A stretch of DNA of 64,000 bases from Thermoplasmata archaeon (GTDB lineage Archaea > Thermoplasmatota > Thermoplasmata > Lutacidiplasmatales > UBA184), in assembly GCA_035622275.1 (NCBI GenBank), contig DASPVQ010000020.1, positions 2,494 to 66,493 on the forward strand, given 5' to 3'. The notes under the pieces are model-generated. The model made no database searches. It was given only the letters and a program-made list of their open reading frames with translations, and was not told where the DNA came from. Below, in pieces: positions 3,785-45,898 of the stretch; the first letter of the stretch is position 1, and each line of letters opens with the position of its first letter. The position numbers and the translations under genes are program-made.

Positions 3785-5734
3785 TTACTGGGACCGGGCG
3801 CGGGCGCCGCCCGCGTCCTCGGGAAGGTGCGCCGCGCGGAGGGCCGCGCGGAATCGCGGCTCCTCGCGTAGCGAGTCGTACGCGGGGAGGCCGGCGCGCA
3901 GCCACAGACCGCTCGTCCCCTCGCGAGCCGAGCGTTCGAGGATGTCGAGTGCCGCCTCCTTCTCGCCCAGCAGCGCGTGCAGTGCGGCCGAGAAGTCGGA
4001 TCCGAGGAGCTCCTCGGGTCGAGCTTCGGTCAGTTCCTTGAGCAGCTGACGGGCCTCCTCGGGCTCGCCGAGGGGGACCAGGATCATCGCGCGAGCGAGG
4101 CGCTGGACCACGCTCCGGGGGGGCCCCGCTGCCACGAGTTCCCGCCGGGCGGCTTCTGGGTCGTTGAGGACGCTGTAGGCGACGCCGAAGCTGAGGTGGG
4201 TCCAACTCGGATCGGGGTCGGGGGTCAGCCACTTGGCCAAGCGATCGCGGGCCCCCTCGAGATCGCCGCGCAGGAGCGCGAGGTCCACGAGGAGGCGTCG
4301 TGGGGCCTGCCAGCTCGGATTGATCTCGATCGCCGCGTGGAGCTCGACCTCGGCCTCCGAGTCGCGGCCGAGCACGCGGAGCAGGGTCGAGTAGCTCAGC
4401 CGGGCGAGGGCGTTGCTGGGGTTGAGCGCGAGGGCTCGACGGAACTCCTCCTCCGCGCGTGGCCACTCGTGGTCCTGCTGCATGACGAGCTCGGCCAGCG
4501 CGGCATGCGCCTCCGAGAGGTTCGGGTCGAGCTCGAGGGCTCGCGTCACGAAGGGGCGCGCCCTGCGGAACCCCTCGCGATGCGGAAGGTAGTCGCCCGC
4601 GCCCTGTACGTAGAGGTAGCCGAGGTAGGCCTGGGCGAGCGCGAACGCGGGGTCTCGTGCGATCGCCTCCTCGAGCCACGCGATCGCTTGGCGGAACCCC
4701 TCCGGAGCGTACCCCGCCGGTTGCTGGATCGCCCGCAGGTACAGCTCGTAGGCCTGCAGATCCTTCGTCGGTGCCCGCCGGATGAACTCACGCGCCGGCT
4801 CCGACAGCTCGACGCGGATCGCCTTCGCCGTACTCTCGGCCACCTCCGTCTGGATGGCGAAGATGTCGGCGAGCTGCCGATCGTAGCTCTCGGACCAGAC
4901 GTGCTCCTGGGTCCCGACGTCGATCAGTTGGAGCGAGATCCGCAGGCGGTCGTTCGCCTTGCGAACGCTCCCTTCGAGGATCGAGGTGACGCCCAGCTCC
5001 GAGCCGATCTGGACGACCGACTTCGAGGTCGACTTGTAGGGCGTGACCGACGTGCGCGCGATGACCCGCAGCCCCCGGATCTTGGAGAGGACCGAGATCA
5101 GCTCTTCCGTGAGGCCATCGGCGAAGTACTCGTCCTTCGGATCCGGGCTGATGTTCGCGAGCGGCAACACCGCGAGGCGCGGAGGCGAGGGGGCGGCGGC
5201 CGCCGGCGCGTGCTCGTCCCCGGGAGGGACCACTCGGAACAGCTCGACCGGCTCGACCACGCCCTTGAGAGCGCGGACGCCGAGCGGCTCGATCCGGAAG
5301 CGGACCTTGTTCTTGACCTGACGGAACACGGACTCCGAGATGCACACGCCGCCGGGCTCGGCCGCGGACTCGACGCGCGCAGCGACGTTCACGGCGTCGC
5401 CGAAGATGTCGCCGCCGCGGCGCTGCACGTCCCCGAGGTGAACCCCGACGCGAACCGGGGGGAAGGCGCGCCCACCGCGCCCGGCGCGCTCCCGCAGTCG
5501 CAACTGGAAGGCGACCGCGCACTCCACCGCATCGAGCGCGCTCGGGAACTCCAGGAGGAGGCCGTCGCCCGTCGACTTCACGATCCGACCGTGGTGCTCG
5601 GCGACGAGCGGGCGGGCGAGCTTCTCTTGTTGCTGGATCAGCTCGAGCGCCCCCCGCTCGTCGGCCTGAGCCAGCTCGGTCGAGCCCACCAGGTCGGTGA
5701 AGACGATGGCCGCCAGGCGACGGGTGCCGGGCAC
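3785..5734 (-). CDS. class III adenylate/guanylate cyclase (CHD) – TolB-N-like domain – TPR repeat protein
   Basis: RRLAAIVFTDLVGST, KSTGDG, GDAVNVAARVE cyclase motifs; LAVLPLANISPDPKDEYFADGLTEELIS TolB-like segment; C-terminal TPRs; GTG start inferred from paralog alignment (V-x-G-T-RRLAA) with a TATA-like element at about -31. Confidence 0.8.
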   Translation of the reverse strand: MPGTRRLAAIVFTDLVGSTELAQADERGALELIQQQEKLARPLVAEHHGRIVKSTGDGLLLEFPSALDAVECAVAFQLRLRERAGRGGRAFPPVRVGVHLGDVQRRGGDIFGDAVNVAARVESAAEPGGVCISESVFRQVKNKVRFRIEPLGVRALKGVVEPVELFRVVPPGDEHAPAAAAPSPPRLAVLPLANISPDPKDEYFADGLTEELISVLSKIRGLRVIARTSVTPYKSTSKSVVQIGSELGVTSILEGSVRKANDRLRISLQLIDVGTQEHVWSESYDRQLADIFAIQTEVAESTAKAIRVELSEPAREFIRRAPTKDLQAYELYLRAIQQPAGYAPEGFRQAIAWLEEAIARDPAFALAQAYLGYLYVQGAGDYLPHREGFRRARPFVTRALELDPNLSEAHAALAELVMQQDHEWPRAEEEFRRALALNPSNALARLSYSTLLRVLGRDSEAEVELHAAIEINPSWQAPRRLLVDLALLRGDLEGARDRLAKWLTPDPDPSWTHLSFGVAYSVLNDPEAARRELVAAGPPRSVVQRLARAMILVPLGEPEEARQLLKELTEARPEELLGSDFSAALHALLGEKEAALDILERSAREGTSGLWLRAGLPAYDSLREEPRFRAALRAAHLPEDAGGARARSQ

Positions 5735-5799
5735 GCGCCGCCAACGGGCATGGGAGGTTAAGGATTGCAACGGCCCCCACGCGACCCGGGCCGTGGCCG

Positions 5800-6354
5800 C
5801 TACCGGCGAGAGGCGGTCTTGCGCGCGGACGCTCGAAGCTGGCGGTGGCGGAAGCAATCGACCGTGTGGTCGTTGACCATCCCGACGGCCTGCATGTGGG
5901 CGTAGACGATCGTCGAGCCCACGAAGCTGAAACCCCGCGCCCGCAGGTCGGCGCTGAACCGGTCGGATTCCGCCGAGGTCGCGGGCACCTGGCGGTAGTT
6001 CGCCCATCGATTGTGGCGGGGGCGTCCGCCCACGAACCTCCAGCAGTAGTCGTCGAAGGTGCCGAACTCTCGCTGGACCGCGAGGAAGGCCCGGGCGTTC
6101 GATACCGCCGACTCGATCTTCCTTTTGTTCCGGATGATGCCGGGGTCCCGCGCGAGGGCGCGCCGCCGCGCCGGCGAGTAGCGGGCGATCTTCGCCGGAT
6201 CGAAACCGTCGAACGCCCGGTCGTACCCGGGACGGCGGTGCAGGATCGTCGACCAGCTCAGTCCGGCCTGGGCCCCTTCGAGCAGGAGGAACTCGAAGTG
6301 CCGCCGGTCATCGTGGACGGGCGTTCCCCATTCGGTGTCGTGGTAGCGGCGCAT
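5800..6354 (-). CDS. tag: DNA-3-methyladenine glycosylase I
   Basis: YHDTEWGTP...LEGAQAGLSWSTIL...GIIRNKRKI...GFSFVGSTIVYAHMQAVGMVNDH aligns closely to E. coli Tag; internal start of ORF 5800..6543. Confidence 0.8.
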   Translation of the reverse strand: MRRYHDTEWGTPVHDDRRHFEFLLLEGAQAGLSWSTILHRRPGYDRAFDGFDPAKIARYSPARRRALARDPGIIRNKRKIESAVSNARAFLAVQREFGTFDDYCWRFVGGRPRHNRWANYRQVPATSAESDRFSADLRARGFSFVGSTIVYAHMQAVGMVNDHTVDCFRHRQLRASARKTASRR

Positions 6355-8482: not shown

Positions 8483-8587
8483 ACGCGCCGGCGACCGCCC
8501 GGCGCCGGTCGCGGACCCCTCCGCAGCCACGCGCCCGCCAGGGCGTGGGTAAGTACATACCTCCCGAGCGCGTCGCTCGCGCGGCCC

Positions 8588-11500
8588 TTGACGAGCGGTG
8601 ACGAACGGTCGAAGAGCGACCCGGGGCCCGGCATCCGAACTTTCCTATTCGCGGACATCCGCGGCTACACCCGCTTCATCGTCGAGCAGGGCGATGCCGC
8701 CGGGGTTCGCATGGTCGACCGGTTCGGGGCGGCGGCCCGCGAGGCCGTCGGGCCGCACCGCGGCGAGATCATCGGGCTGGCCGGCGACGAAGCCGTGGCC
8801 GTCTTCGCCTCCGCCCGCGACGCGCTCCGGTCGGCGCTCGACTTCCAGCGCCGGGTCGCGGACGCGACGGCACGCGATCCGGACGTCCCGCTCCTCGTGG
8901 GAATCGGTCTCGACACCGGCGAGGCCGTGCCGGCCGGTGGAAACTACGTCGGCGCCGCGCTGAACCTCGCCGCCCGCCTGTGCAAGCTGGCCGGACCGAG
9001 CGAGGTGCTCGCCAGCGAAGCGGTCGTCCACGTCGCGTCGAAGATCGACGGGATCGGTTACGTCGAGCGAGGGCTGGCGCAGCTCAAGGGCTTCCGGGAC
9101 CCGGTTCGGGTCTTCAAGGTCCTGGACGAGGTCCGCCCCCTCGGCCCGGCCGCCGAGACGGGTCGCCTCGAGGCGGGCCATGTTCCGCCCGAGCCACCGC
9201 CGCCGATCGGGGGCTTCCTGGGGGCGCTGCCGGCCACGGAACTGGTGGCCCGGGAGCCGGAGCTGGGCCGGGCGCTCGTCGCGGCGGACTCCGCGATCGG
9301 CGGCGCCGGGCGCTTCGTGCTCCTCGCGGGCGAGCCCGGCGTCGGCAAGACCCGCCTTGCCCAGGAGATCATGCTCACGATCCGCAACCGGCGATTCCTG
9401 GTCGCCACCGGACGTTGCTACCAGACCCACCAACCCGTGCCGTTCTACCCGTTCCTTGACGCGCTCACGAGCGCCTATCGCCTCGCCCCGCCCTCCGTCC
9501 GTGCCCTCGTCCTGGAGCGCTGGCGCCACCTCAGCCGTCTCCTGCCCGAGCTCAAGGCCGAGGTCGCTCCTCCTCTGTCCAGCACCCCGGAGGAGCAGCA
9601 GTTGTTGTTCCGCGAGGTGACGGCATTCCTCGAGGCGGTCGCGGCGGAGACACCGGTCGCGATCCTGATCGACGACCTCCACTGGGCGGACTCCGCCACG
9701 CTCGAATTGCTCCAGCACATCGCGCGCCACACGCGCGCGAGCCGGATCCTGCTCGTCGCCACCTTCCGCGACGTCGAGGTGGGTCGCCATCACCCGCTCG
9801 ATGCCGCGCTGCGTGACCTCACGCGCGAGGACCTGGTCGAGCGCATCACGGTGCGGCGCCTCGAACCGACCGGCACGGCGCGCCTGGTCGCGCTGACCCT
9901 GGGCGAATCGGACGCCTCGCCGGAGCTCGTGGAACTCCTGCACCAGCATGCCGACGGGAACCCGTTCTTCACGCAGCAGCTGCTGCGATTCCTGGTGGAA
10001 CGCGGCGACCTGTACCGCCGGGACGGCGTGTGGGTGGAACGCCCGCTCCGCCGGCTCGAGGTCCCCGATAGCGTTCGCTCGGTCATCGGTCAGCGCATGG
10101 AGCGGCTCAGCGAACCCGCGCCGCAGATCCTTCGGGAGGCGGCGGTGCTCGGGCAGACGTTCTCCTTCTCGGCCCTGGTCGGGCTGAGCGGACGCCCGGA
10201 GGCGGAGGTCGAGCGCAGCCTGGAAGAGGCCCAGGCGACCGGCCTGCTCGAGGAACGGCGACCGGATTTGTATGCGTTCGACCACGCCCTGACGCAGCAG
10301 GCCCTGTACGGGGAGCTCTCGCCGCGTCGACGTCGCGCCCTCCATCTGGCCGCCGCGGAAGCGCTCGAGCGCCTGCCGGCGGCCGAGCGGGCCCCCCGCA
10401 GCGCGGAGCTCGCGGGGCACTTCCTCGAGGCCGCGCAGGAGGAGCGGGCCATCCCCTTCGCGCTCGCGGCCGGAGACCTCGCCCGCTCGGTCTTTGCGAG
10501 CGGGCCGGCGGAGCGCCAGTACACGATCGCCCTCGAGATCGCGGAGCGGACCCATCGAGCCGACGGGGAGGCCGACGCGCTCGGACGCCGCGCGCGGCTG
10601 TACCTCGACACGTTCCGCGGCCCCCCCGGGCTCGCCGACAGCACGCGCCTGCTCGAGCTCGCGCGCCAGCGCGGGGACCGGGCCCTCGAGCTGCGGGCGC
10701 TGTTGCTGGTGTCCGAGGCGTCGTACATCGTCGCGCTCGACGCCACGACCCCCGAGCTCCTAGCCGCCTGGAGGCTCAACAGCGAGCGCGCGCAGACGCT
10801 CGCGGACGAGCTCGGCAACGAGCCCGCCAAGGTCGAAGCGCTGCTGAAGTCGCGGTGGATGGCCGACTTCTTCCCCGAGTACCGCCCCAAGGTTCAGGAA
10901 AACCTGCGCACCGCGCTGGAGGTCAGCCGGCGCCTCGGCGATCCGGATCTGACGCTGGCGAGCGAGCTCGCGCTCTGGGGACAAGGCGATCGGCTCGAGG
11001 CCGAGGCCCGGGCGACGCGCTTGGTCCGACAGCTGCGCGACCGCCGGGACTTCGGACGGCTGAACCTGCTCTACTTCTCGATGATGTGGGCCTACCTGGA
11101 ATGGGCCGAGTTCGCCAAGGCGATCGAGGCGTGCGACGCGGGCATCCGCCTCGCGGAGGAGATCGGCGTTCCGCCCGTGCAGTACCCGACGCTCCGGGCC
11201 TTCGCGCTGATCGAGCTCGGTCGCTTCGCCGAAGCCCGCGAGTCCCTGCGCCAGGAGGTGGCGGACGCCGAACATCCCTTCGGACAGGCGATGCAGCTGC
11301 TCGGGCTCGGCATGTACTTCTTCGAGCTCCGGGACTTCGGGCGCGCCGAGCAAACGTTCCGGGATCAGCTCGAGCGTGCGAAGCGGCTGCGCCGGGCCTG
11401 GATGGCGCGCTGGTCACTGGAGTACATCGCCCGCGCGCGTCTTCGCGAGGGCCGTCTCGATCCGTCGGACTGGGAGGCGCTCGAGCAGGAGATGGCCCCG

Positions 11501-11923
11501 CTGGCCAACTTCGCGTCGGATGCGGTCCGCGCCGAGGTCGCGCTCGCCCGGGGCGACACCGAAACGGCGTTGGGGGTTGCCCGCCAGGTGGCATCGAGGG
11601 CCGAGGCGGAGGAGGAGATCCGGGACCTGATGTCCGCGCGCGAGGTTGAGATCCGCGCGCTGCTCGGCCTCGGGCGCGCGCACGACGCGGCGGCGCTCGC
11701 CGAGCGGCTCGCCCGAGACCTCTCCGCTCGACAGGCCCGGTCGCGGGCGTGGCGCGCCTTCGCGCTGCGCGCTACGGCGCTCGCTGCGGCGCACGATGCG
11801 CCCGCGGCCCAGGAGGCGCGTCTCGCCGCCGGCTCGATCGTTCGGGAGCTCGCCGAGTCGATCCCAGAGGCCGAATCGAGGCGAGCGTTCTTGACGAGCC
11901 CCGAGGTTCGAGACCTGCTCTAG
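8588..11923 (+). CDS. nucleotidyl cyclase (CHD) – STAND/AAA ATPase – TPR multidomain protein
   Basis: FLFADIRGYTRF cyclase; Walker A LLAGEPGVGKTRLAQE; long C-terminal helical/TPR region; TTG start with a TATA-like element at about -33. Confidence 0.8.
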   Translation: MTSGDERSKSDPGPGIRTFLFADIRGYTRFIVEQGDAAGVRMVDRFGAAAREAVGPHRGEIIGLAGDEAVAVFASARDALRSALDFQRRVADATARDPDVPLLVGIGLDTGEAVPAGGNYVGAALNLAARLCKLAGPSEVLASEAVVHVASKIDGIGYVERGLAQLKGFRDPVRVFKVLDEVRPLGPAAETGRLEAGHVPPEPPPPIGGFLGALPATELVAREPELGRALVAADSAIGGAGRFVLLAGEPGVGKTRLAQEIMLTIRNRRFLVATGRCYQTHQPVPFYPFLDALTSAYRLAPPSVRALVLERWRHLSRLLPELKAEVAPPLSSTPEEQQLLFREVTAFLEAVAAETPVAILIDDLHWADSATLELLQHIARHTRASRILLVATFRDVEVGRHHPLDAALRDLTREDLVERITVRRLEPTGTARLVALTLGESDASPELVELLHQHADGNPFFTQQLLRFLVERGDLYRRDGVWVERPLRRLEVPDSVRSVIGQRMERLSEPAPQILREAAVLGQTFSFSALVGLSGRPEAEVERSLEEAQATGLLEERRPDLYAFDHALTQQALYGELSPRRRRALHLAAAEALERLPAAERAPRSAELAGHFLEAAQEERAIPFALAAGDLARSVFASGPAERQYTIALEIAERTHRADGEADALGRRARLYLDTFRGPPGLADSTRLLELARQRGDRALELRALLLVSEASYIVALDATTPELLAAWRLNSERAQTLADELGNEPAKVEALLKSRWMADFFPEYRPKVQENLRTALEVSRRLGDPDLTLASELALWGQGDRLEAEARATRLVRQLRDRRDFGRLNLLYFSMMWAYLEWAEFAKAIEACDAGIRLAEEIGVPPVQYPTLRAFALIELGRFAEARESLRQEVADAEHPFGQAMQLLGLGMYFFELRDFGRAEQTFRDQLERAKRLRRAWMARWSLEYIARARLREGRLDPSDWEALEQEMAPLANFASDAVRAEVALARGDTETALGVARQVASRAEAEEEIRDLMSAREVEIRALLGLGRAHDAAALAERLARDLSARQARSRAWRAFALRATALAAAHDAPAAQEARLAAGSIVRELAESIPEAESRRAFLTSPEVRDLL

Positions 11924-17803: not shown

Positions 17804-18148
17804 TTACCCCGCCGGTGCGCCGCACCCGGAGCACAACCTAGCCCCGGGGGGAATCGGATACTGGTACTTCGGACACGTGACGGCCGACGCCCGCGCCGAC
17901 GAGGGACTGCGTGAGCCGGTGGCTCGTTCGAACGGATTACCGACGCCGGCGGCCCCCATGTTGGCTTCCACGTAGGCCCGCTGGGCGGGGGTGAGCTGGG
18001 CCATGCGTGCGTTGTACTGACGTTGCGCCTCGGCGATGATGTCGGCCGGAGACCCCGCGGCCCCGGGCGGCATCGGACGTGCGAGCCCGCAGCGGCCGCA
18101 GGTGGTTGCGTTCGGCGCGAGCGGGTTCCCGCAGCGGGGACAGTTCAT
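17804..18148 (-). CDS. double zinc-ribbon small protein
   Basis: MNCPRCGNPL...CGRCG and a C-terminal CPKYQ...CSGCG; the upstream part of ORF 17804..18469 is R/P-rich junk. Confidence 0.5.
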   Translation of the reverse strand: MNCPRCGNPLAPNATTCGRCGLARPMPPGAAGSPADIIAEAQRQYNARMAQLTPAQRAYVEANMGAAGVGNPFERATGSRSPSSARASAVTCPKYQYPIPPGARLCSGCGAPAG

Positions 18149-18526
18149 CGGCCCTAGCCCTCCTGGTGGGGACCGGGATGGCCAACACCGCCTTAACCCC
18201 CGTGACCTGCGCGGCCGCGTGGTGGACCGCAGGGCGACCCACCACCATCGGTTCCAATAGACCGGGCCCGTGGTCGCACCCGCGGGCACCACTCGGCCCG
18301 GTCGAACCCCCGCACTGAAGCGGTGCGCGACGAGCGGGGGCGAGACATTCCCTCTCGTGAGGGCTGGCGAAGGCGTCTCCGACGGGCTCGGCGGAGTCAG
18401 CGCACCGCTGCCCTGCCCCACCGGTCGAGGAGGCAGCGGCCGCTGCCTCCGGTCGACCGCGCTGCCCACGCGCGTCGGGCGAGAATAGATTGAATAGTTG
18501 GCTCGCGGTCCCCGAGCGGCCTGCCG

Positions 18527-21500
18527 ATGCAGCGTAGGGAGAGCCTCACCGGCGCCGCGATCGCGGTCGCCGTAGCGCTCGCGATGCTGCTGTCAGCGTC
18601 CGCGGGTCCTCTCATGGGTTCGGCCGCGGCGCCGGGCCCCTCGACGGTCTCCTCGGAGCGTGCGGACACATCCCCGCGGGCCACCCCCTCCCCTCGGGTC
18701 GGTACCGCTGCGCCGAACGCGGCGGCCGCGGGCGCCGACGGGCGGGGCGCGGTACCCTCGATCCCTCCGCTCGCCGCGCTGCATCTCGCGCCCGCGCCCG
18801 CCCAGGGTGCCGGAAGCGAGGTCCGAGCCGTCACGTATCTCGCGGCGGCCTCGCTGGCAACCTCCGCCGCGAACAGCTACGACCCTGAGGACTGGTTGGT
18901 CTCCCTCGGCGTCGCGATCGACGAGCCGCTGAACTTGGTGGGCACGATCACCAACACGACGTTCGGGCTCTGTCCCGACCATCTGATCGTGCCCGTGCCC
19001 TCCGCCCTCACCATCTGGGGAACACCGGCATCCGCCGCACTGGGTACGTCCGCGTTCTTCGAGTTCTTCCTGACCTCCTCGAACGTCCCCGCGACCACGT
19101 TGTTCGGCATCGTGGACAACGACACGGCCGAGATGATCTACTGGACGCCGAACCTGCAGATCGACGACACCACCTGCGGCACCCTCTTCGGCACGCCGTG
19201 GGGCTCGTCGACGGTCATCGATTCGCCCGCCGCGGTGACGATGGCGAACTCGGTCGGCGGGAGCGCGTTCCTCGCCTCCCACCCGGGAGCGAGCGAGCTG
19301 TGGGAGTTCGTCCCGGTCGAGCCGGCATTCGTCGCCGGCACGCTCTACAAGCAGCCCGCCGCCTGGGTGATCGAGTACGAGACGGGAGGCACCTGCGGGA
19401 TCTTCAACGCTCCCGGAGGCGGGCTCGAGTTCGAGGCAGAGATCGACGCGCTGACGGGTGCCGTTCTGTCGACTTATTCCGGCGCCTGCGGGCTCGAGCT
19501 GCCCGTCACGTTCGTCGAGACCGGGCTGCCGAGCGGGACCGTCTGGAGCGTTCAGACTCCCGACCAGACCAACTCCTCCGCGACGGACACGATCGGCTTT
19601 GCCTGGGAGAACGGGACCATAACCTACGGGATCGTCGGTGTCCCGGGGTACTCCGCGTCGCCGGCCTACGGGATGGTCGATGTGAACGGCGCGGCGATCC
19701 GCGTCACGATCGCGTTCGCTCCGGCGACCACCGAGCCGGTGACCTTCACCGAATCCGGGCTCCTCGCGAACGCTGGCTGGCTGGTCGAGCTGAACGACAC
19801 CTTCGAAGTCTCCTCGACCAACTCGATCTCGTTCTCCGAGCCCGCCGGAATCTACGCCTTCACGGTGTACGGCCCGGCGACCGGTTACCTGCTGAGCCCG
19901 ACGAACGGCAACGTGACGGTCTCCGGAGAACCGGCGTCGGTCCCGGTAGATTTCACCGCGCTCGCGTCCTACACGATCTCGTTCACCGAGACCGGTCTTC
20001 CCGCGGGGACCTGTTGGGGGGTCGAGGCGATCGGGCCGGACTTCCTCGTGTCGAGCTTCTCCACCAAGACCACCGTCAACGTCAGCGCCGGGAACGGGAC
20101 GTACGACTACCTGGGAGGCGCGTTCGCCCCCAACTACAACACGAGCGCGGCGTACCAGCACGTGACGGTCGCCGGATCCCCCGTTCCCGTGAGCGTGCCC
20201 TTCACCCCGCAGGCCCTGTACGCGGTGACGTTCACGGAGACCGGGCTCCCGAGCGGAACCCCGTGGATCGTCGGGAACAGCGAGTCGCTCCTCCTGGTGA
20301 ACTCCTCGAGCGGTTCGAGCATCGGTTTCCTCCTGCCGAACGGCTCGTTCCCCTTCGTCGTGGGACTCGTCTCGGCCTACGACCGTTCGCCGGCCAGTGG
20401 GACTCTCGCCATCGAGGGGTCCGCGATGTCGCAGATGGTCGCGTTCACGCGCAACGCCTCCGAGGCCGAGTACGGCGTGGCCTTCGTCGAGTCGAACCTC
20501 CCCGGCGGGACGGCCTGGAACGTCACGGTGGGGGTCGAAACGATCTCGACCACCACGTCCACGGTCGACTTCGAACTGATCAACGGATCGTACGCGTTCT
20601 CCGTCAGCTCGGTGCCCGGGTTCACCCGTAGTCCCTCGAGCGGCGACGTCGTGGTGGAGGGGGCGCCCGTTTCCCAATCGATCACGTTCTCCTCGACGTC
20701 GATCGTTCTCTACACCGTGACCTTCACCGAGACCGGTCTCCAGGCCGGAACCATGTGGTCGGTGATGCTCTCGATCGAGACCAACTTCTCGACGACGGCC
20801 AGCGTCACGTTCGCGGAAGGCGACGGATCGTACGCCTTCACCGTGACGAGCATCGCCGGCTACGAGGTCTCGCCCGCGACCGGAACCGTCGTCGTGGACA
20901 GCGCAGCGGCGATCGAGAGGATCACGTTCTCGCGCCTGTATTCCGCTTCGTTCCGCGAGTCGGGCCTGCCCGTCGGCACGGAATGGTCCGTCTCACTGAA
21001 CGGCTCGCTGAACTCCTCGACCATCGACCTGGTCGGCTTCAGCGTCCCGGCCGGCGACTACCCGTACTCGATCGCGTCGTTCGGCCGCTGGCTCCCGCAG
21101 CCCGCTCAGGGCAATCTGAACGTCTCGGGCCCGGGAGCGACGGTCGCGATCGCCTTCGTCTACGCCTACGAAGTCCTTTTCGATCGGCCCGGGGGAGTCC
21201 CGTCGGGGTCGGAGTGGTCGGTGATCCTGTCCGGCTCGGGCCTCCTCACGATCGCGCGCGCGCCGGCCGCGTCGCTCAGCCGGAGCTCGACGCTTCCCAC
21301 GATCTCGTTCGAGGAACCGAACGGTACCTACTCCTACACCGTGCTCGTGGCGTCCGATCCCAGCTACAGTGCGTCGGGCAGCGTCACGATCTCGGGCAAT
21401 TCGCCCGCCGTGACGCCACCCGTCCTGGCGGGTCCGGCCCCCGCGAGCAGCCCGCCGACGAACTACTGGATGTACACCGCCCTCGGAGCCATGGTCGTGG

Positions 21501-21586
21501 CGGTGATCCTCGGCATCGCCCTCGTTCTTATGCGTCGGGGGTCCCCGCCGCCCGACCCTCCGTACGACCCGGTCCGCCGTCGGTGA
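18527..21586 (+). CDS. large cell-surface glycoprotein with eight tandem ~95-aa 'FxExGLPxGTxWxV' repeats and a C-terminal TM anchor
   Basis: Signal peptide; about 20 N-x-S/T sequons; repeats begin VTFVETGLPSGTVWSV, ISFTETGLPAGTCWGV, VTFTETGLPSGTPWIV and so on; ends with a TM helix plus MRRGSPPPDPPYDPVRRR. Confidence 0.8.
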   Translation: MQRRESLTGAAIAVAVALAMLLSASAGPLMGSAAAPGPSTVSSERADTSPRATPSPRVGTAAPNAAAAGADGRGAVPSIPPLAALHLAPAPAQGAGSEVRAVTYLAAASLATSAANSYDPEDWLVSLGVAIDEPLNLVGTITNTTFGLCPDHLIVPVPSALTIWGTPASAALGTSAFFEFFLTSSNVPATTLFGIVDNDTAEMIYWTPNLQIDDTTCGTLFGTPWGSSTVIDSPAAVTMANSVGGSAFLASHPGASELWEFVPVEPAFVAGTLYKQPAAWVIEYETGGTCGIFNAPGGGLEFEAEIDALTGAVLSTYSGACGLELPVTFVETGLPSGTVWSVQTPDQTNSSATDTIGFAWENGTITYGIVGVPGYSASPAYGMVDVNGAAIRVTIAFAPATTEPVTFTESGLLANAGWLVELNDTFEVSSTNSISFSEPAGIYAFTVYGPATGYLLSPTNGNVTVSGEPASVPVDFTALASYTISFTETGLPAGTCWGVEAIGPDFLVSSFSTKTTVNVSAGNGTYDYLGGAFAPNYNTSAAYQHVTVAGSPVPVSVPFTPQALYAVTFTETGLPSGTPWIVGNSESLLLVNSSSGSSIGFLLPNGSFPFVVGLVSAYDRSPASGTLAIEGSAMSQMVAFTRNASEAEYGVAFVESNLPGGTAWNVTVGVETISTTTSTVDFELINGSYAFSVSSVPGFTRSPSSGDVVVEGAPVSQSITFSSTSIVLYTVTFTETGLQAGTMWSVMLSIETNFSTTASVTFAEGDGSYAFTVTSIAGYEVSPATGTVVVDSAAAIERITFSRLYSASFRESGLPVGTEWSVSLNGSLNSSTIDLVGFSVPAGDYPYSIASFGRWLPQPAQGNLNVSGPGATVAIAFVYAYEVLFDRPGGVPSGSEWSVILSGSGLLTIARAPAASLSRSSTLPTISFEEPNGTYSYTVLVASDPSYSASGSVTISGNSPAVTPPVLAGPAPASSPPTNYWMYTALGAMVVAVILGIALVLMRRGSPPPDPPYDPVRRR

Positions 21587-21715: not shown

Positions 21716-23680
21716 GTGACGGGTACCCGTCGTCTCGCCGCCATCATGTTCACCGACATGGTCGGCTACACCGCCGCGACCCAGTCGGACGAGACGGGAG
21801 CGCTGCGCCGGCGCGCCGAGCAGGAGACCCTATTGCTGCCGGTCGTGGGGGAGCATGGCGGCCGCAAGGTGAAGTCCACCGGCGACGGCGTCCTGCTCGA
21901 GTTCGGTAGCGCGCTCAAGGCGACGCAGTGCGCGATCGAGATCCAGCGCCGGGTGCGGGAGCGTAACGCCCGCTCTGGCCAGACCCCGATCGAGATGCGG
22001 ATCGGCATCCATCTGGGCGACGTGGAGGTGCAGGACGGCGACATCTTCGGCGACGCCGTGAACCTCGCGGCGCGGGTCGAACCGCTGGCCGAGCCCGGCG
22101 GAGTCTGCCTCTCGGAGGAGGTCTTCTCCCAGGTCCGCAACAAGATTCCCGTCACGATGGAAAAGCTTCCCGCCCAGGACCTCAAGGGCGTCCGGTTCCC
22201 GGTCACGGTGTATCGGGTGCGGATGCCGTGGACCGCTCCCGATGGCCCGGCGAGCCCTGGCGACTCCCAGCGCCTGGCCGTGCTGCCGTTCGCGAACTTC
22301 AGCCCCGATCCCCACGACGAGTACTTCGCGGACGGGCTCACGGACGAGCTGATCACCGTGCTGGCCCAGCTGCAGAGCGTCCGCGTCGTCGCGCGCACGT
22401 CGGTCTTCCAGTACAAGGGGACCACGAAGACCGTCGCCCAGATCGGCTCCGAGCTCGACGTCGCGTCCGTGCTGGAAGGCAGCGTGCGCAAGTCGGACGG
22501 GCGCATCCGGGTGACCGCGCAGCTCATCGACGTGCGCACGCAGGATCACACCTGGGCGGAGTCCTACGACCGGAACCTCTCCGACGTTCTCGAGGTCCAG
22601 TCGGACGTGGCGAAGGAGGTCGCGAAGGCGCTCAAGGTCCGGATCCGGAGCCCCGACGCCCGGGGCCCGGAGGGCAATCGTCCGGTGCAGTCGGAGTCGT
22701 ATCTCGCGTATCTCCGGGGCCGCGCCCTGTTCCTGGAGTCCTTCTCGGAACCGAACCTCAAGGAGGCCCAGTGGCAGTTCGAACGGGCGGTGTCGCTCGA
22801 CCCCAGCAACGCCCGAGCCTACGCCGGGCTATCCGAGGCCACGCACCTCTTGGGCCTCTTCTACGGCCGCCGATCGAAGTCGGAGAACCTCCGCGCGGCG
22901 CGTCAATTCGCCGAGCGGGCCATCGAACTGGATCCGGGCCTGGCCGAGGGTCACAGCGCCCTCGGGCTGGTCCTCTACGACGACCTGGAGTGGGACGGGG
23001 CGGAGCAGGAGGCGCTGGTCGCGCTGGGGCTGAACCCGAGCTACTCGACCGCGCGCCTGTGGTATTCCCTCCTGCTCCAAGAGGAGGGCCGGGTCGACGA
23101 CGCCCTCTCCCAGATGCGAGAGGCGTACGCGTTGGATCCGCAGTCCCGGCAGATCTGCGGTCTGTACACCTTCCTGTTGCTGGTGCTCGAGAGGACCGCC
23201 GAAGTCGAGCCCGTCCTGGAGAAGCTCCGGAGCCTCGACCCGACCGGCCACGAATACCACATGTTCCGGGGCTGGACGCTCTACCTTCGGGGCGATGTCG
23301 ACGGCGCGTTCCGGGAGATCGCCCTGGGCGAGTCCTGTCCCGCCGATCGGCCCGGCGGCCGGGTCGGGGCCTCGTACGAGCGGGCCCAGCTGTACGCCCT
23401 GACCGGCCAGAAGGACCGGGCTCGCGCCCTGATCGCGGAGATTCCGCCCGCGCCCGAGCTGGCCCACCCTCTCATGGATCGGGCGATCACCTATGGGTAC
23501 TTGGGCGACCTCGACGAGTGCTTTCGGCTGCTGAACGAGCAGTACGACATCGGCCACGGAATGCCGCTCCAACGAGTCCGACTTGATCCGAGCCTCAAGG
23601 CGTTGCGCGCGGACTCTCGGTTCGCCGCGTTGCTCAAACTCACGAAGATCCCTGAGGCCTACCGCGGCACCGACCCCTGA
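21716..23680 (+). CDS. class III nucleotidyl cyclase – TolB-N-like – TPR protein
   Basis: MTGTRRLAAIMFTDMVGYT, KSTGDG, GDAVNLAARVE; LAVLPFANFSPDPHDEYFADGLTDELI; TPRs. Confidence 0.85.
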   Translation: MTGTRRLAAIMFTDMVGYTAATQSDETGALRRRAEQETLLLPVVGEHGGRKVKSTGDGVLLEFGSALKATQCAIEIQRRVRERNARSGQTPIEMRIGIHLGDVEVQDGDIFGDAVNLAARVEPLAEPGGVCLSEEVFSQVRNKIPVTMEKLPAQDLKGVRFPVTVYRVRMPWTAPDGPASPGDSQRLAVLPFANFSPDPHDEYFADGLTDELITVLAQLQSVRVVARTSVFQYKGTTKTVAQIGSELDVASVLEGSVRKSDGRIRVTAQLIDVRTQDHTWAESYDRNLSDVLEVQSDVAKEVAKALKVRIRSPDARGPEGNRPVQSESYLAYLRGRALFLESFSEPNLKEAQWQFERAVSLDPSNARAYAGLSEATHLLGLFYGRRSKSENLRAARQFAERAIELDPGLAEGHSALGLVLYDDLEWDGAEQEALVALGLNPSYSTARLWYSLLLQEEGRVDDALSQMREAYALDPQSRQICGLYTFLLLVLERTAEVEPVLEKLRSLDPTGHEYHMFRGWTLYLRGDVDGAFREIALGESCPADRPGGRVGASYERAQLYALTGQKDRARALIAEIPPAPELAHPLMDRAITYGYLGDLDECFRLLNEQYDIGHGMPLQRVRLDPSLKALRADSRFAALLKLTKIPEAYRGTDP

Positions 23681-43280: not shown

Positions 43281-43303
43281 CCGGGTCGCTCTCGCAACCC
43301 ACG

Positions 43304-45898
43304 ATGGGTGCGCTCCGTTGGCCGCTCCTGGTGCTGGTAGCCGCGATTGCTGCGATCATGGTCGTGCCCTCTCCGGCGGGCCTCGCCTCGCCGGCTGCCC
43401 CCCGAGGGGCTACGCTCGCCGCGTTACCGAGCTCTTCGGCCGCCGGGCCAGTCGCGGCGGAGCCGGCGCATCCGGCGGCGCCGGCGCCCGCCACGGCCCA
43501 AGTCCGAGCGCAAGATATCGAAGCGCGCATGACATCGTCCCTGGCCCGCGACGGCATCCCGGCAGCTGAACAGCTCCTCCCGAACCTCATGTCTCAGACG
43601 AGCGTGAAGGACGGGCAGATCGTACCGGCGCCCGCGACAGTGCCTTCGCCGATGGGAGTCGCGGATTACGGCATCCAGGAGGTGGGCGGCGTGAACGTTC
43701 CGACGCTGAACTTCTATCAGAGCATCGCGGGGCGATTCACGATGAACGAGATCGGCCTGAACTACCCCAACAGTGCCGGCCCGGATGAGTTCTCCCTGCA
43801 ACTCAACACGGTGGCCTCCAACGTCACGCTCTTCGGCAATTCGAGCTACCAGTTCTGGACGCAGAACGTCGTCTACTACTTCCAGAGTACGCACAGCCTG
43901 CATCTCTTGGACGCGATCGTCAACTTCACCAACAGCGACTTCAACTTCTCACCGAACACAATCATCGAGGGAAACGGGTTCTACTATCCCGGGTTCGGCT
44001 ACTTCTATCCGTACGGACCCGATCTGACGGTGCCCGAGCCATTCACGATCAACTTCTACAACAACCTGACCGTACAGGACGGCGACTCGGCGATCTACTT
44101 CAACTACTCCGTCAGCTCGCCGGACGGAATCCAGTCGGGGTCCTTCGACCTGGTGGTGTTCAACTCTCAGCCGCTCAGCGGGCCGGCGATCACCTCGGTG
44201 TCGCCGTTGTTCGAGATCAACGGCTATCAGCTCACCGGGACCGGCTTCATCCCCTACGACGCCGAGATGATTCTCGGAGGGGACGGGGGCGGCTCGACGG
44301 CGTCGATCTTCGACATCAACGCCGAGGTCCAACTGTTCCTCGAGGCGGCCGGCGCGAGCAGTTACAGCCCGATCCCAGCGGGATACTCGTTTGGCAGCGA
44401 GACCGGAGAGACCGTGTCCGGAGTTGCCGAATGGGCGTCCGGCGGCCCGGACCCCGTGGTCCATCTCGGGCCGGGTCCCGCGAACCTCGGTCCGCTGTTC
44501 GGGGTCCTCGGTGCTCCACCGACCGGCTATGTCACGCAGACGCTCAACGTCCAGCCGACGAACGCGTTCATCTTCGGCTCGCTCGGCAGCACCTTCAACG
44601 CGAACACGGCCGCGTGGGGTCCGGTGCCGACGTCCGGACGGGCGACCTATCTGCTGCCCCCGGGGACCTACAGCTACGACGTGATGCTGAGCGATCACGA
44701 TCCGGTGCTCGTGACCATCTCGGGGTCCGGATCGGCGGTGATCCGCCTGCGGACGGACTGGTCGCAAGGGGTCTACACGCCGCTCTGGGCCTTCGATAAC
44801 GCGCAGCTGGCGGCAATCTCGCTCCCCGGAGGCTCCGGCTCGCAGCGGAACCCCTACCTCCTCGACAACAACGGCGTCGCGCAGCTCGACCCGCTGTTCA
44901 GCACCTTCAACGACTACATCTTCTGGCAGTTCCCCGGCGTCTTCCTCTCGGGCACCACGGCCTACGTCGCGCTGTACCAGGCGCCGTCGTTCACCGCGCC
45001 GCTCTCGCTGTCGTGGGAGGTCGCCTACAGCTACAGCGCTTACCTCCCGCCGACGACTCAGCTGACGATCTACCTGTACGCCACCGACCACGCGTCCGTG
45101 GTCGACTGCTCGGACATCGGCGGTTGGTGGTTCGTCTCGGACGTCGGCGAGTCGGAGGCGAACCTGGTGCTCTGGAACGCTACCGACACGCTGGTCGCGG
45201 GGAACACGTTCCAGGACTCGAGCATCTCCATGTTCACCTTTGGCGGCGCCGGCAACGTGCTGTGGGGCAACGTCTTCGAGACCTACCTCGATCCGGCCGC
45301 GCCGTACCCGGGGTTCATCCTCAACTACGGCATCCCCCAGGCCCTCCAGGAGTGGGAATCGGGGGACCTGATCTACAACAACGCGTTCGACACTCCCCAG
45401 ACCGCGGTGAGCCCGCCCTACAGCATCTACTCCTTCTACGGTGTCCCTGAGACCTGGACGGACAGCTGGGACGTCATCCCCCAGCCCGCGTTCCTGCTGT
45501 CGTACGTCAACGGCTGGCGGCTCACCGGGAGCATCCTCGGCCTCCCGTACGTGGCCGGCAACTTCTGGTCGAACTACGGCTCGGGCGCGGACCCGTACGG
45601 CGAGCTCCCCTACAACGACAGCGGGGCGATCGCCTACGGCGGGGATTACTTCCCCGTCGTCCCCTACCCGCTCTACGACATCGTGTTCATCGAACACGGG
45701 CTCCCCCATGGGACCGAGTGGTCGGTGACCATGAACGGCTTTACGCAGTCGACGACCGGGCGCACGCTCGTCTTCGAGGATCCGACGGGATCGTATCCGT
45801 TCGCGGTCGCCACGACCTCGAGCTACACGCCGACCCCGGCCTCGGGGGTGGTCGTCCTGACGAGCCACAGCGTCGTCGTGGTCGTGTACTGGAGCTGA
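43304..45898 (+). CDS. large secreted N-glycosylation-sequon-rich protein with a beta-helix-like central region and one C-terminal 'GLPxGTxW' repeat (thermopsin-like?)
   Basis: Signal peptide; many NxS/T; parallel beta-helix-like turns (LVAGNTFQDS, NVLWGNVFE); C-terminus YDIVFIEHGLPHGTEWSVTMNG matches the repeat of 18527..21586. Confidence 0.75.
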   Translation: MGALRWPLLVLVAAIAAIMVVPSPAGLASPAAPRGATLAALPSSSAAGPVAAEPAHPAAPAPATAQVRAQDIEARMTSSLARDGIPAAEQLLPNLMSQTSVKDGQIVPAPATVPSPMGVADYGIQEVGGVNVPTLNFYQSIAGRFTMNEIGLNYPNSAGPDEFSLQLNTVASNVTLFGNSSYQFWTQNVVYYFQSTHSLHLLDAIVNFTNSDFNFSPNTIIEGNGFYYPGFGYFYPYGPDLTVPEPFTINFYNNLTVQDGDSAIYFNYSVSSPDGIQSGSFDLVVFNSQPLSGPAITSVSPLFEINGYQLTGTGFIPYDAEMILGGDGGGSTASIFDINAEVQLFLEAAGASSYSPIPAGYSFGSETGETVSGVAEWASGGPDPVVHLGPGPANLGPLFGVLGAPPTGYVTQTLNVQPTNAFIFGSLGSTFNANTAAWGPVPTSGRATYLLPPGTYSYDVMLSDHDPVLVTISGSGSAVIRLRTDWSQGVYTPLWAFDNAQLAAISLPGGSGSQRNPYLLDNNGVAQLDPLFSTFNDYIFWQFPGVFLSGTTAYVALYQAPSFTAPLSLSWEVAYSYSAYLPPTTQLTIYLYATDHASVVDCSDIGGWWFVSDVGESEANLVLWNATDTLVAGNTFQDSSISMFTFGGAGNVLWGNVFETYLDPAAPYPGFILNYGIPQALQEWESGDLIYNNAFDTPQTAVSPPYSIYSFYGVPETWTDSWDVIPQPAFLLSYVNGWRLTGSILGLPYVAGNFWSNYGSGADPYGELPYNDSGAIAYGGDYFPVVPYPLYDIVFIEHGLPHGTEWSVTMNGFTQSTTGRTLVFEDPTGSYPFAVATTSSYTPTPASGVVVLTSHSVVVVVYWS

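Follow-up and report, generated by a model that had tools for sequence, protein, structure and literature searches.

The gene described here is an open reading frame (ORF) on the forward strand of a 64,000-nucleotide stretch of DNA from a Thermoplasmata archaeon (contig DASPVQ010000020.1, positions 2,494 to 66,493), referred to below as the window and used for all coordinates unless another contig is named. It encodes a large protein in which a signal-like N-terminus and a folded head are followed by eight tandem beta-rich repeats, a C-terminal transmembrane (TM) helix and a short basic tail (Table 1), an arrangement that a preliminary description, made from the letters of the sequence, had put forward as that of a surface glycoprotein and that is present in full. 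The ORF of 1019 codons plus stop proposed there stands, with a GC content at third codon positions (GC3) typical of coding DNA in a window of 70% GC and like that of its other credible genes. Its product is identical over 1019/1019 residues to GenBank entry HXW67313.1, which is carried on a 247-kb contig under the NCBI name 'hypothetical protein VEL82_05515 [Thermoplasmata archaeon]'.

Table 1. Features of the repeat protein gene and of related loci. Coordinates refer to the window except in the last three rows, which give positions on contigs of other genomes (MAG, metagenome-assembled genome; aa, amino acids; AF2, AlphaFold2).
Feature	Position	Strand	Basis
Coding sequence, 1019 aa plus stop	18527..21586	+	GC3 0.90; identity to HXW67313.1
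Putative signal peptide, aa 1-26 (MQRRES / LTGAAIAVAVALAMLL / SASA)	18527..18604	+	hydropathy window maximum 2.1
Low-complexity Ala/Pro/Ser-rich linker, aa 27-94	18605..18808	+	read from sequence
Head domain, aa 95-326, two alpha+beta lobes, four Cys (149, 217, 290, 321)	18809..19504	+	homologue alignment and AF2
Repeat 1, aa 327-404	19505..19738	+	profile domain E 8.8e-26
Repeat 2, aa 405-483	19739..19975	+	profile domain E 6.6e-25
Repeat 3, aa 484-566	19976..20224	+	profile domain E 9e-19
Repeat 4, aa 567-650	20225..20476	+	profile domain E 1.7e-24
Repeat 5, aa 651-730	20477..20716	+	profile domain E 1.6e-25; AF2-modelled
Repeat 6, aa 731-806	20717..20944	+	profile domain E 1.4e-25; AF2-modelled
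Repeat 7, aa 807-883	20945..21175	+	profile domain E 2.3e-24
Repeat 8, aa 884-965	21176..21421	+	profile domain E 4.3e-16, profile positions 7-68
Pro/Ser/Ala-rich membrane-proximal linker, aa 966-979	21422..21463	+	read from sequence
Predicted C-terminal TM helix, aa 980-1002 (YWMYTALGAMVVAVILGIALVLM)	21464..21532	+	hydropathy maximum 2.66
Short basic Pro-rich tail, putatively cytoplasmic, aa 1003-1019 (RRGSPPPDPPYDPVRRR)	21533..21583	+	read from sequence
AT-rich TATA-like box (AATAGATTGAATAGTT)	18484..18499	+	most AT-rich 16-mer within 500 nt upstream
Thermopsin-family gene	43301-45898	+	PF05317 E 1.3e-47, signal-like N-terminus
Repeat locus, Caldivirga sp. UBA161	L105 2794-6900		
Repeat locus, Thaumarchaeota MAG	L095 2222-5209		
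Repeat locus, Thermoprotei MAG	L071 127-4539		

A hydropathy scan of the protein finds only two hydrophobic segments, the signal-like aa 7–22 and the C-terminal helix (maximum 2.66; 16 of 500 shuffles reach 2.5). Signal cleavage would fall after A-S-A (aa 24–26) by the -3/-1 rule, and the basic tail would lie on the cytoplasmic side by the positive-inside rule. What had been taken as a 320-aa N-domain behind the signal peptide is not a single domain; after the signal peptide comes a linker that is unconserved in the homologue alignment, and the folded head accounts for the remaining ~230 aa. A TM helix with an R/K cluster also closes 89 of the 120 best homologues found with the full-length protein (see below). 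In about one third of these 120 the C-terminal TM helix opens with a conserved F-L-G-L-P-x-x-[ED]-G-Y motif and the R/K cluster comes after it (for example P0002, P0003, P0007, P0017, P0021, P0028, P0031, P0033, P0036 and P0039 of our homologue set); the motif is missing from the window protein. This three-part C-terminus resembles archaeosortase/exosortase-type sorting signals, and P0002 has a sub-threshold match to GG_III-CTERM (E 0.11). Archaeosortase sorting signals (PGF-CTERM and relatives) gave no NCBIfam match in the window protein.

The eight tandem repeats were delimited by a regular-expression scan and alignment. All eight begin with [VI][TS]F[TV]E[ST]GLPxGTxWxV and continue into a second half of the form GYxxSPxxGxVxVxG...F, as first described, although the unit measures 76–84 aa (about 78) and not the ~95 aa given at that time; the family-wide median period, taken over 120 homologues, is 79 aa. 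Starting from the eight copies, a profile was iterated on the homologues to 1198 instances; it finds every one of the eight with domain E values between 4e-16 and 9e-26, and the protein carries the family signature F-T-E-[ST]-G-L-P-x-G-T-x-W ... N-G-[ST]-Y ... G-Y-x-x-x-P-x-S-G-x-V-x-V-x-G. Repeat 2 has a degenerate GLLANAGW motif, and the orthologues are degenerate at the same position too; repeat 8 is the most divergent copy and contains a 13-residue insertion. The Glu at profile position 5, within the F-T-E-x-G-L motif, is near-invariant and has no conserved basic partner in the repeat (profile positions 3, 5, 8 and 14 correspond to aa 733, 735, 738 and 744 in repeat 6); it might be structural, bind a metal or contact the next module.

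Short-read assemblies can in general collapse tandem repeats, and the repeat number might in principle be an artefact of a collapsed or expanded array or of a chimaeric ORF, a point on which the preliminary description had itself asked for a check. The eight repeats share 29–46% pairwise protein identity, Tandem Repeats Finder detects no DNA-level array in the gene and the longest exact DNA word common to the copies is 17 nt, so that collapse by an assembler is unlikely. The identical 1019-aa product is also encoded, with its neighbours unchanged, on contigs from ENA (115 kb) and Logan (7.2 kb). With the NCBI contig, three assemblies made independently agree, and a fourth, from JGI, encodes a near-identical protein of equal length in which at least S109T differs. 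Orthologues that share the head have 7–8 repeats as counted by profile domains, those with eight being 38–44% identical to the window protein, and in a comparison with the closest orthologue (P0003) repeats 1, 2, 4, 5 and 6 each match best the repeat at the same position. These observations refute an assembly artefact, to which we give practically no credence. Since the copies are divergent, the assemblies agree and the orthologues keep a similar number and, in part, the same order, the array is old and constant in length. In Periscope proteins, by comparison, the repeats are near-identical in DNA and their number varies between strains, unlike the divergent copies kept at 7–8 in the orthologues here. 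The length of such surface proteins is set by the run of tandem stalk repeats (PMC9704523).

Curated domain collections do not cover the repeat. Pfam-A and NCBIfam contain no model that matches above threshold the whole protein, any single repeat, the N-terminal 326 aa or any of 44 tandem pairs from the family. A confident match to PKD, PEGA or Big, which would have counted against the preliminary description, did not appear in Pfam scans, in which these three, fn3 and CarboxypepD_reg gave no match to the whole protein (E ≤ 1) or to single repeats (E ≤ 10). Sub-threshold Pfam matches among the 44 tandem pairs are scattered, each occurring in at most two members, and the weak echoes that are found point toward prealbumin-like families (SpaA_2, DUF5979, CarboxypepD_reg and NOMO1-like). 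Sequence searches of the PDB with the whole protein and with the repeat profile returned no match, SlaB included, and a Pfam scan of the window protein did not find the thermopsin (peptidase A5, PF05317) domain. The word 'novel', used of the repeat at the outset, is apt in that no curated family covers it and inapt in that hundreds of archaeal proteins carry it.

The fold of the repeat was predicted with AlphaFold2 from the tandem of repeats 5–6 and a 44-row alignment. The model has a predicted local distance difference test score (pLDDT) of 96.7 and contains eight beta strands per repeat with a short linker between the two. Its best Foldseek match in the PDB is SdrD B1-B2 (E 4.2e-6), and further matches are to streptococcal and Lactobacillus pilins, B. 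anthracis TIE, SpyCEP and the transthyretin-like domains of NOMO (BOS complex). All of them are at 9–16% identity, and the best, to Gram-positive adhesin and pilin stalks, have E values of 4e-6 to 1e-3 and a Foldseek probability of ~1.0. The predicted model thus resembles CnaB-type/transthyretin-like (prealbumin-like) stalk domains, and each repeat is predicted to be a beta-sandwich whose nearest fold relatives are NOMO and the stalk modules that Gram-positive adhesins and pilins carry, in line with the immunoglobulin (Ig)-like beta-sandwich that had been expected.

The prominence among these matches of stalk domains from pilins and from microbial surface components recognizing adhesive matrix molecules (MSCRAMMs) brings up the alternative that isopeptide bonds cross-link the repeats, which would then be CnaA/CnaB-type domains (DUF7619/CLIPPER-like) of the sort known from bacterial pilins and adhesins. 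Two pure-repeat fragments among the homologues (P0268 and P0283) do bear the NCBI name 'DUF7619 domain-containing protein', and the published description of DUF7619 (PF24595) is of a CnaA-like domain that spans ~130 aa and forms a Lys-Asp-Asn isopeptide bond (L7WFS8 residues 653–784; PMC12617251). However, there are only two Lys residues in the whole window protein, at positions 275 (head) and 514 (repeat 3), neither at a conserved repeat column, and a Lys-Asp/Glu-Asn triad therefore cannot exist. An hmmscan against Pfam-A gave no PF24595 match for P0268, P0283, the window protein or the 44 tandem pairs, presence of this model in the searched copy being unconfirmed; the unit is moreover only 76–84 aa long. 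For these reasons we do not file the repeat under DUF7619. Judged by the lack of any conserved Lys in the repeats, the isopeptide explanation is largely refuted and would seem very improbable. A distant relationship to DUF7619 may exist. The NCBI label could stem from another model version or cut-off, or the model could be missing from the Pfam copy searched. Ester cross-links were considered alongside isopeptide bonds, and both were rejected as the repeats have no conserved Lys, Gln or His.

About 20 N-x-S/T sequons, or roughly twice expectation, had been claimed for the protein at first. The count is 19, against 7.43 ± 2.39 in shuffled sequences, and none of 20,000 shuffles reaches 19. The repeats hold 17 of these, and 65% of their Asn residues lie within sequons. 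This excess is partly positional, as an NG[ST] sequon occupies column 35 of the profile in 83% of 808 family repeats (the family mean being 2.7 sequons per repeat). The column falls at the turn between strands 4 and 5 of the model, and the site should for that reason be exposed. It is kept in five of the eight window repeats (N362, N523, N605, N686 and N932), and a sixth NG[ST] sequon (N825) occurs at another position. The pattern fits N-glycosylation, as for Sulfolobus SSO1175, a protein described as N-glycosylated, present in the cell-surface fraction and equipped with a C-terminal TM or glycosylphosphatidylinositol (GPI)-type signal (PMC6712394, PMC3958906). The window protein is thus probably heavily glycosylated.

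With the full-length protein as query, 8000 candidates were scored and 677 proteins passed E ≤ 1e-3, almost all of those with a name being 'Thermoplasmata archaeon' hypothetical proteins. Each of the 120 best homologues has 6–20 repeats, usually followed by the TM helix and R/K cluster, and in front of the repeats stands a thermopsin domain (PF05317), a YncE/NHL/lactonase propeller, a kumamolisin pro-domain, an ice-binding domain or no head at all. A whole-protein search for related loci in GTDB species genomes found none, and a back-translated F-T-E-[ST]-G-L-P-x-G-T-x-W pattern matched at least 120 stretches in them. Among the 120 matches listed, all are true repeats by profile and 105 are labelled Thermoplasmata, Thermoplasmatota or Thermoplasmatales (including Cuniculiplasma), the others being from Micrarchaeota, Bathyarchaeia, Nanoarchaeota, Thaumarchaeota, Thermoprotei, Caldivirga, Methanobacteriota and a few 'bacterium' or Poribacteria bins; the listed loci range in GC content from 34% to 73%. 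The repeat is not confined to Thermoplasmata, since large surface proteins with 3–5 intact-motif repeats occur in low-GC crenarchaeal and thaumarchaeal genomes (Table 1).

Two of the homologues (P0067 and P0102) combine a PF05317 thermopsin domain with the repeat, and the window itself contains a thermopsin-family gene with exactly one repeat at its extreme C-terminus (~45683–45895, E 5e-20). No TM anchor follows this repeat, and the product is thus probably secreted rather than tethered. With these three cases the tentative remark of the preliminary description on similar repeats in thermopsin-like proteins proves correct. Taken together, the sequence comparisons indicate that the repeat is a shared display module of the lineage, common in Thermoplasmata, and that the window protein is an ordinary member of a family that has been little described.

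The head is distinct from the repeats that it precedes. It aligns with 13 homologues at 30–47% identity, certain Trp, Gly and Cys residues being invariant, and AlphaFold2 models it (pLDDT 82.8, predicted template modelling score 0.82) as two lobes, each consisting of one long helix on a six-strand sheet. The four Cys residues suggest one disulfide per lobe, which would pair C149 with C217 and C290 with C321. A head profile searched against 1.84 billion cluster representatives retrieved 474 at E ≤ 1e-3, of which 221 reach E ≤ 1e-10. Many of these relatives are stand-alone proteins of ~270–440 aa with an N-terminal membrane segment, and in some the head alternates with stalk repeats or with a sedolisin-like protease. 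The head is an autonomous uncharacterised family, separate from the stalk repeat. Two stand-alone paralogues, of ~270–310 aa and again with an N-terminal membrane segment (L123 1547-3503 and L124 4854-6822), lie in two Thermoplasmata-type contigs, divergent beside a gene of Arc_PepC_II/peptidase-A24-like (prepilin-peptidase) type. Those inspected end in A-[AR]-K-A-I. Their conserved neighbourhood includes MeaB / B12-binding genes and, in the longer contig (L124), also those for ribosomal S6e and eIF2-gamma.

We consider it probable, on the whole of this evidence, that the protein is a type-I membrane glycoprotein resembling a fibrillar adhesin or stalked surface receptor, with an anchor, a stalk of fixed length and a binding head. 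A Sec-type signal peptide would export the chain, and the lone C-terminal helix and basic tail would retain it in the cytoplasmic membrane. Eight beta-sandwich modules of ~78 aa with a prealbumin/CnaB-like fold, joined by linkers of 0–4 residues, would form the stalk, whose length may be estimated at roughly 25–30 nm if each Ig-like module contributes ~3.5–4 nm. N-glycans would be borne on exposed loops of the stalk, which would lift the two-lobed, disulfide-containing and weakly PepSY-like head off the membrane, there to bind a partner. The same module may serve as a generic display device of the lineage, given to paralogues that bear thermopsin-like or sedolisin-like proteases, beta-propellers or other heads. 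The term 'adhesin' is used here by analogy, from the architecture alone.

Several points weigh against this interpretation. The Pfam, PDB and Foldseek searches returned no significant structural or sequence relative for the head: PepSY (PF03413) matches aa 279–317 at 17.2 bits against a cut-off of 24 (E 0.0066), the sole PDB match by profile is a chain named 'Propeptide, PepSY and peptidase M4' (9vy3; terminal hairpin, E 0.55), and the best Foldseek match is 4exr (E 0.02, target-normalised TM-score 0.50). A binding role for the head is for this reason conjecture. A structural role as an Asn-Gly beta-turn, rather than glycosylation, could account for the conserved NG[ST]. The neighbouring genes (for a divergent 114-aa double zinc-ribbon protein, DUF420, PNPOx, an adenylate cyclase with tetratricopeptide (TPR) repeats and an amidohydrolase) are unrelated, and a functional hint from an operon was rejected.

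The same weak signals lead to a different view of the head, as a PepSY-type inhibitor or chaperone, which would make the protein a surface-tethered regulator of the cell's own secreted acid proteases (thermopsins, sedolisins) and not an adhesin. An inhibitory role has been proposed for PepSY/BLIP-like proteins (PMC2954215). Each head lobe has the PepSY-like layout of a helix on an antiparallel sheet; together with the PF03413 and PDB matches this makes three independent weak signals. The second lobe also ends in a hairpin, F-x-A-E-I-D-x-x-T-G-A-V, like the PepSY signature, one homologue (P0135) joins the head to a sedolisin-like protease in a single polypeptide, and the thermopsin gene of the window lies 22 kb off. 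Each PepSY signal is, however, below its curated threshold, and the lobes, at ~110 aa, are larger than PepSY, each apparently with a disulfide. Most head-bearing proteins contain no protease domain, and the stand-alone paralogues lie in a housekeeping neighbourhood by the peptidase-A24-like gene and not by secreted proteases. A protease regulator of this kind is in our judgement distinctly unlikely.

Close parallels are the Sulfolobales thermopsin-like proteins SSO1175 (SsMTP-1), M164_1049 and Saci1846, which from their descriptions are similarly archaeal and surface-exposed, with a signal peptide, repeats and a C-terminal anchor. SSO1175 has two internal repeats of ~79 aa (V297-N375 and V446-N523; PMC3958906), and such ~79-aa repeats behind Sulfolobus thermopsin domains were noted in 2014 as generic 'RPT' repeats; Saci1846 has Ig-like domains, and a C-terminal TM helix is predicted for it and for M164_1049 (PMC12207459, PMC6712394). 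The window repeat family is itself also fused to thermopsin, as in the three cases given above. Unlike these proteins, the window protein lacks a thermopsin domain, its head being an unrelated two-lobed alpha+beta domain, and it has eight repeats as against two or three.

This comparison bears on whether the protein could be a surface-layer (S-layer) component, either as a lattice subunit or as a membrane stalk to which an outer lattice is anchored, as SlaA is to SlaB and Saci1846 in Sulfolobus. SlaB and Saci1846 share the layout of signal peptide, Ig-like domains and C-terminal TM helix, and the S-layer is lost when both are deleted (PMC12207459, PMC6712394). Archaeal S-layer proteins are typically rich in sequons, and SlaB (8qox_B) does occur in the Foldseek list for the repeats, albeit at rank 50 with E 1.5e-2. 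Set against this, the Pfam and NCBIfam matches include no S-layer family, no PDB chain, SlaB among them, is matched by the repeat profile, and no canopy-protein candidate was seen nearby; in contrast to Saci1846, there is no indication of S-layer anchoring. Within Thermoplasmatales, S-layers are present only in Picrophilaceae according to a preprint that cites Golyshina et al. 2016 (10.1101/2021.04.28.441871). The use of the same repeat by many paralogues with unrelated heads is a better fit to a general display stalk, and a role in an S-layer seems to us unlikely.

The stalked membrane glycoprotein that we favour has its best structural counterparts in Gram-positive MSCRAMM and pilin stalks (the SdrD B repeats, CnaB of SpaA, Spy0128 and PitA), with which it shares a common plan, a functional head at the N-terminus leading into tandem beta-sandwich modules and then an anchor at the C-terminus. 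The sequences, however, have only 9–16% identity with no Pfam match to CnaB or SdrD_B, and the module is ~78 aa long as opposed to ~90–130 aa and has no isopeptide Lys. The window protein is in addition archaeal, carries N-glycosylation sequons and is anchored by a putative TM helix rather than by LPXTG and sortase. Tandem stalk domains define the class of fibrillar adhesins (Monzon & Bateman; PMC12617251), and at the level of sequence and model the protein, which would likewise be elongated and monomeric, has their signal peptide, tandem stalk domains, tip domain and surface anchor. Its stalk and tip both lie outside curated families, and adhesion would be a prediction from architecture. Archaeal examples of fibrillar adhesins often have no recognisable co-occurring Pfam domains (PMC12617251), which fits the window protein.

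Upstream of the gene lies a TATA-like box (Table 1) in which 13 of 16 positions are A/T, against a genome of 70% GC, and which ends 28 nt before the ATG; a similar AT-rich box precedes the next gene. We infer an archaeal promoter with a leaderless or short-leader mRNA. The small divergent protein on the other side (window ~18100–18445, reverse strand, inside ORF 17804–18469) contains two CxxC...CxxC zinc-ribbon motifs with faint DZR/Zn_ribbon matches and corresponds to the 114-aa gene at 9278–9622 of contig L121. Zinc ribbons are also found in some repeat-family members (P0135, P0026 and P0053), in the cytoplasmic tail after the TM helix. Elsewhere in the window are two paralogous adenylate/guanylate-cyclase proteins with TPR repeats (3785–6307, reverse strand, and 21716–23680, forward strand) and a large AAA_16/NACHT-type ATPase of the signal transduction ATPases with numerous domains (STAND) class (8483–11923, forward strand), a density of signalling proteins that is unusual for an archaeal genome segment.

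The kind of protein described here, a surface protein with tandem beta-sandwich stalk repeats, is already known, and this exact protein is in GenBank as a hypothetical; the single window gene is an ordinary member of its family and shows nothing unusual in mechanism. The new part is descriptive, in that an uncurated stalk repeat and an uncurated head family have been defined and the wide use of both in Thermoplasmata recorded. Neither domain is captured by the present Pfam and NCBIfam models; once curated, the two would give a name to hundreds of large archaeal surface proteins now called 'hypothetical protein'. For studies of archaeal N-glycosylation, the conserved NG[ST] turn offers a concrete target that can be tested.

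A broader proposal is possible, though we hold it as doubtful: that the ~78-aa module is a distinct uncurated archaeal family and the universal display stalk of Thermoplasmata, with an N-glycan on each module at the conserved beta-turn and dozens of paralogous surface enzymes and binders per genome that jointly build a glycocalyx in place of a wall or S-layer in a lineage that mostly lacks walls, and that the head is a second uncharacterised family with stand-alone paralogues by a peptidase-A24-like gene. Most Thermoplasmata are uncultured, and many of their cultured relatives have no cell wall. It is for this reason that surface proteins decide the contact of such cells with substrates, with partners (for example DPANN episymbionts) and with viruses.

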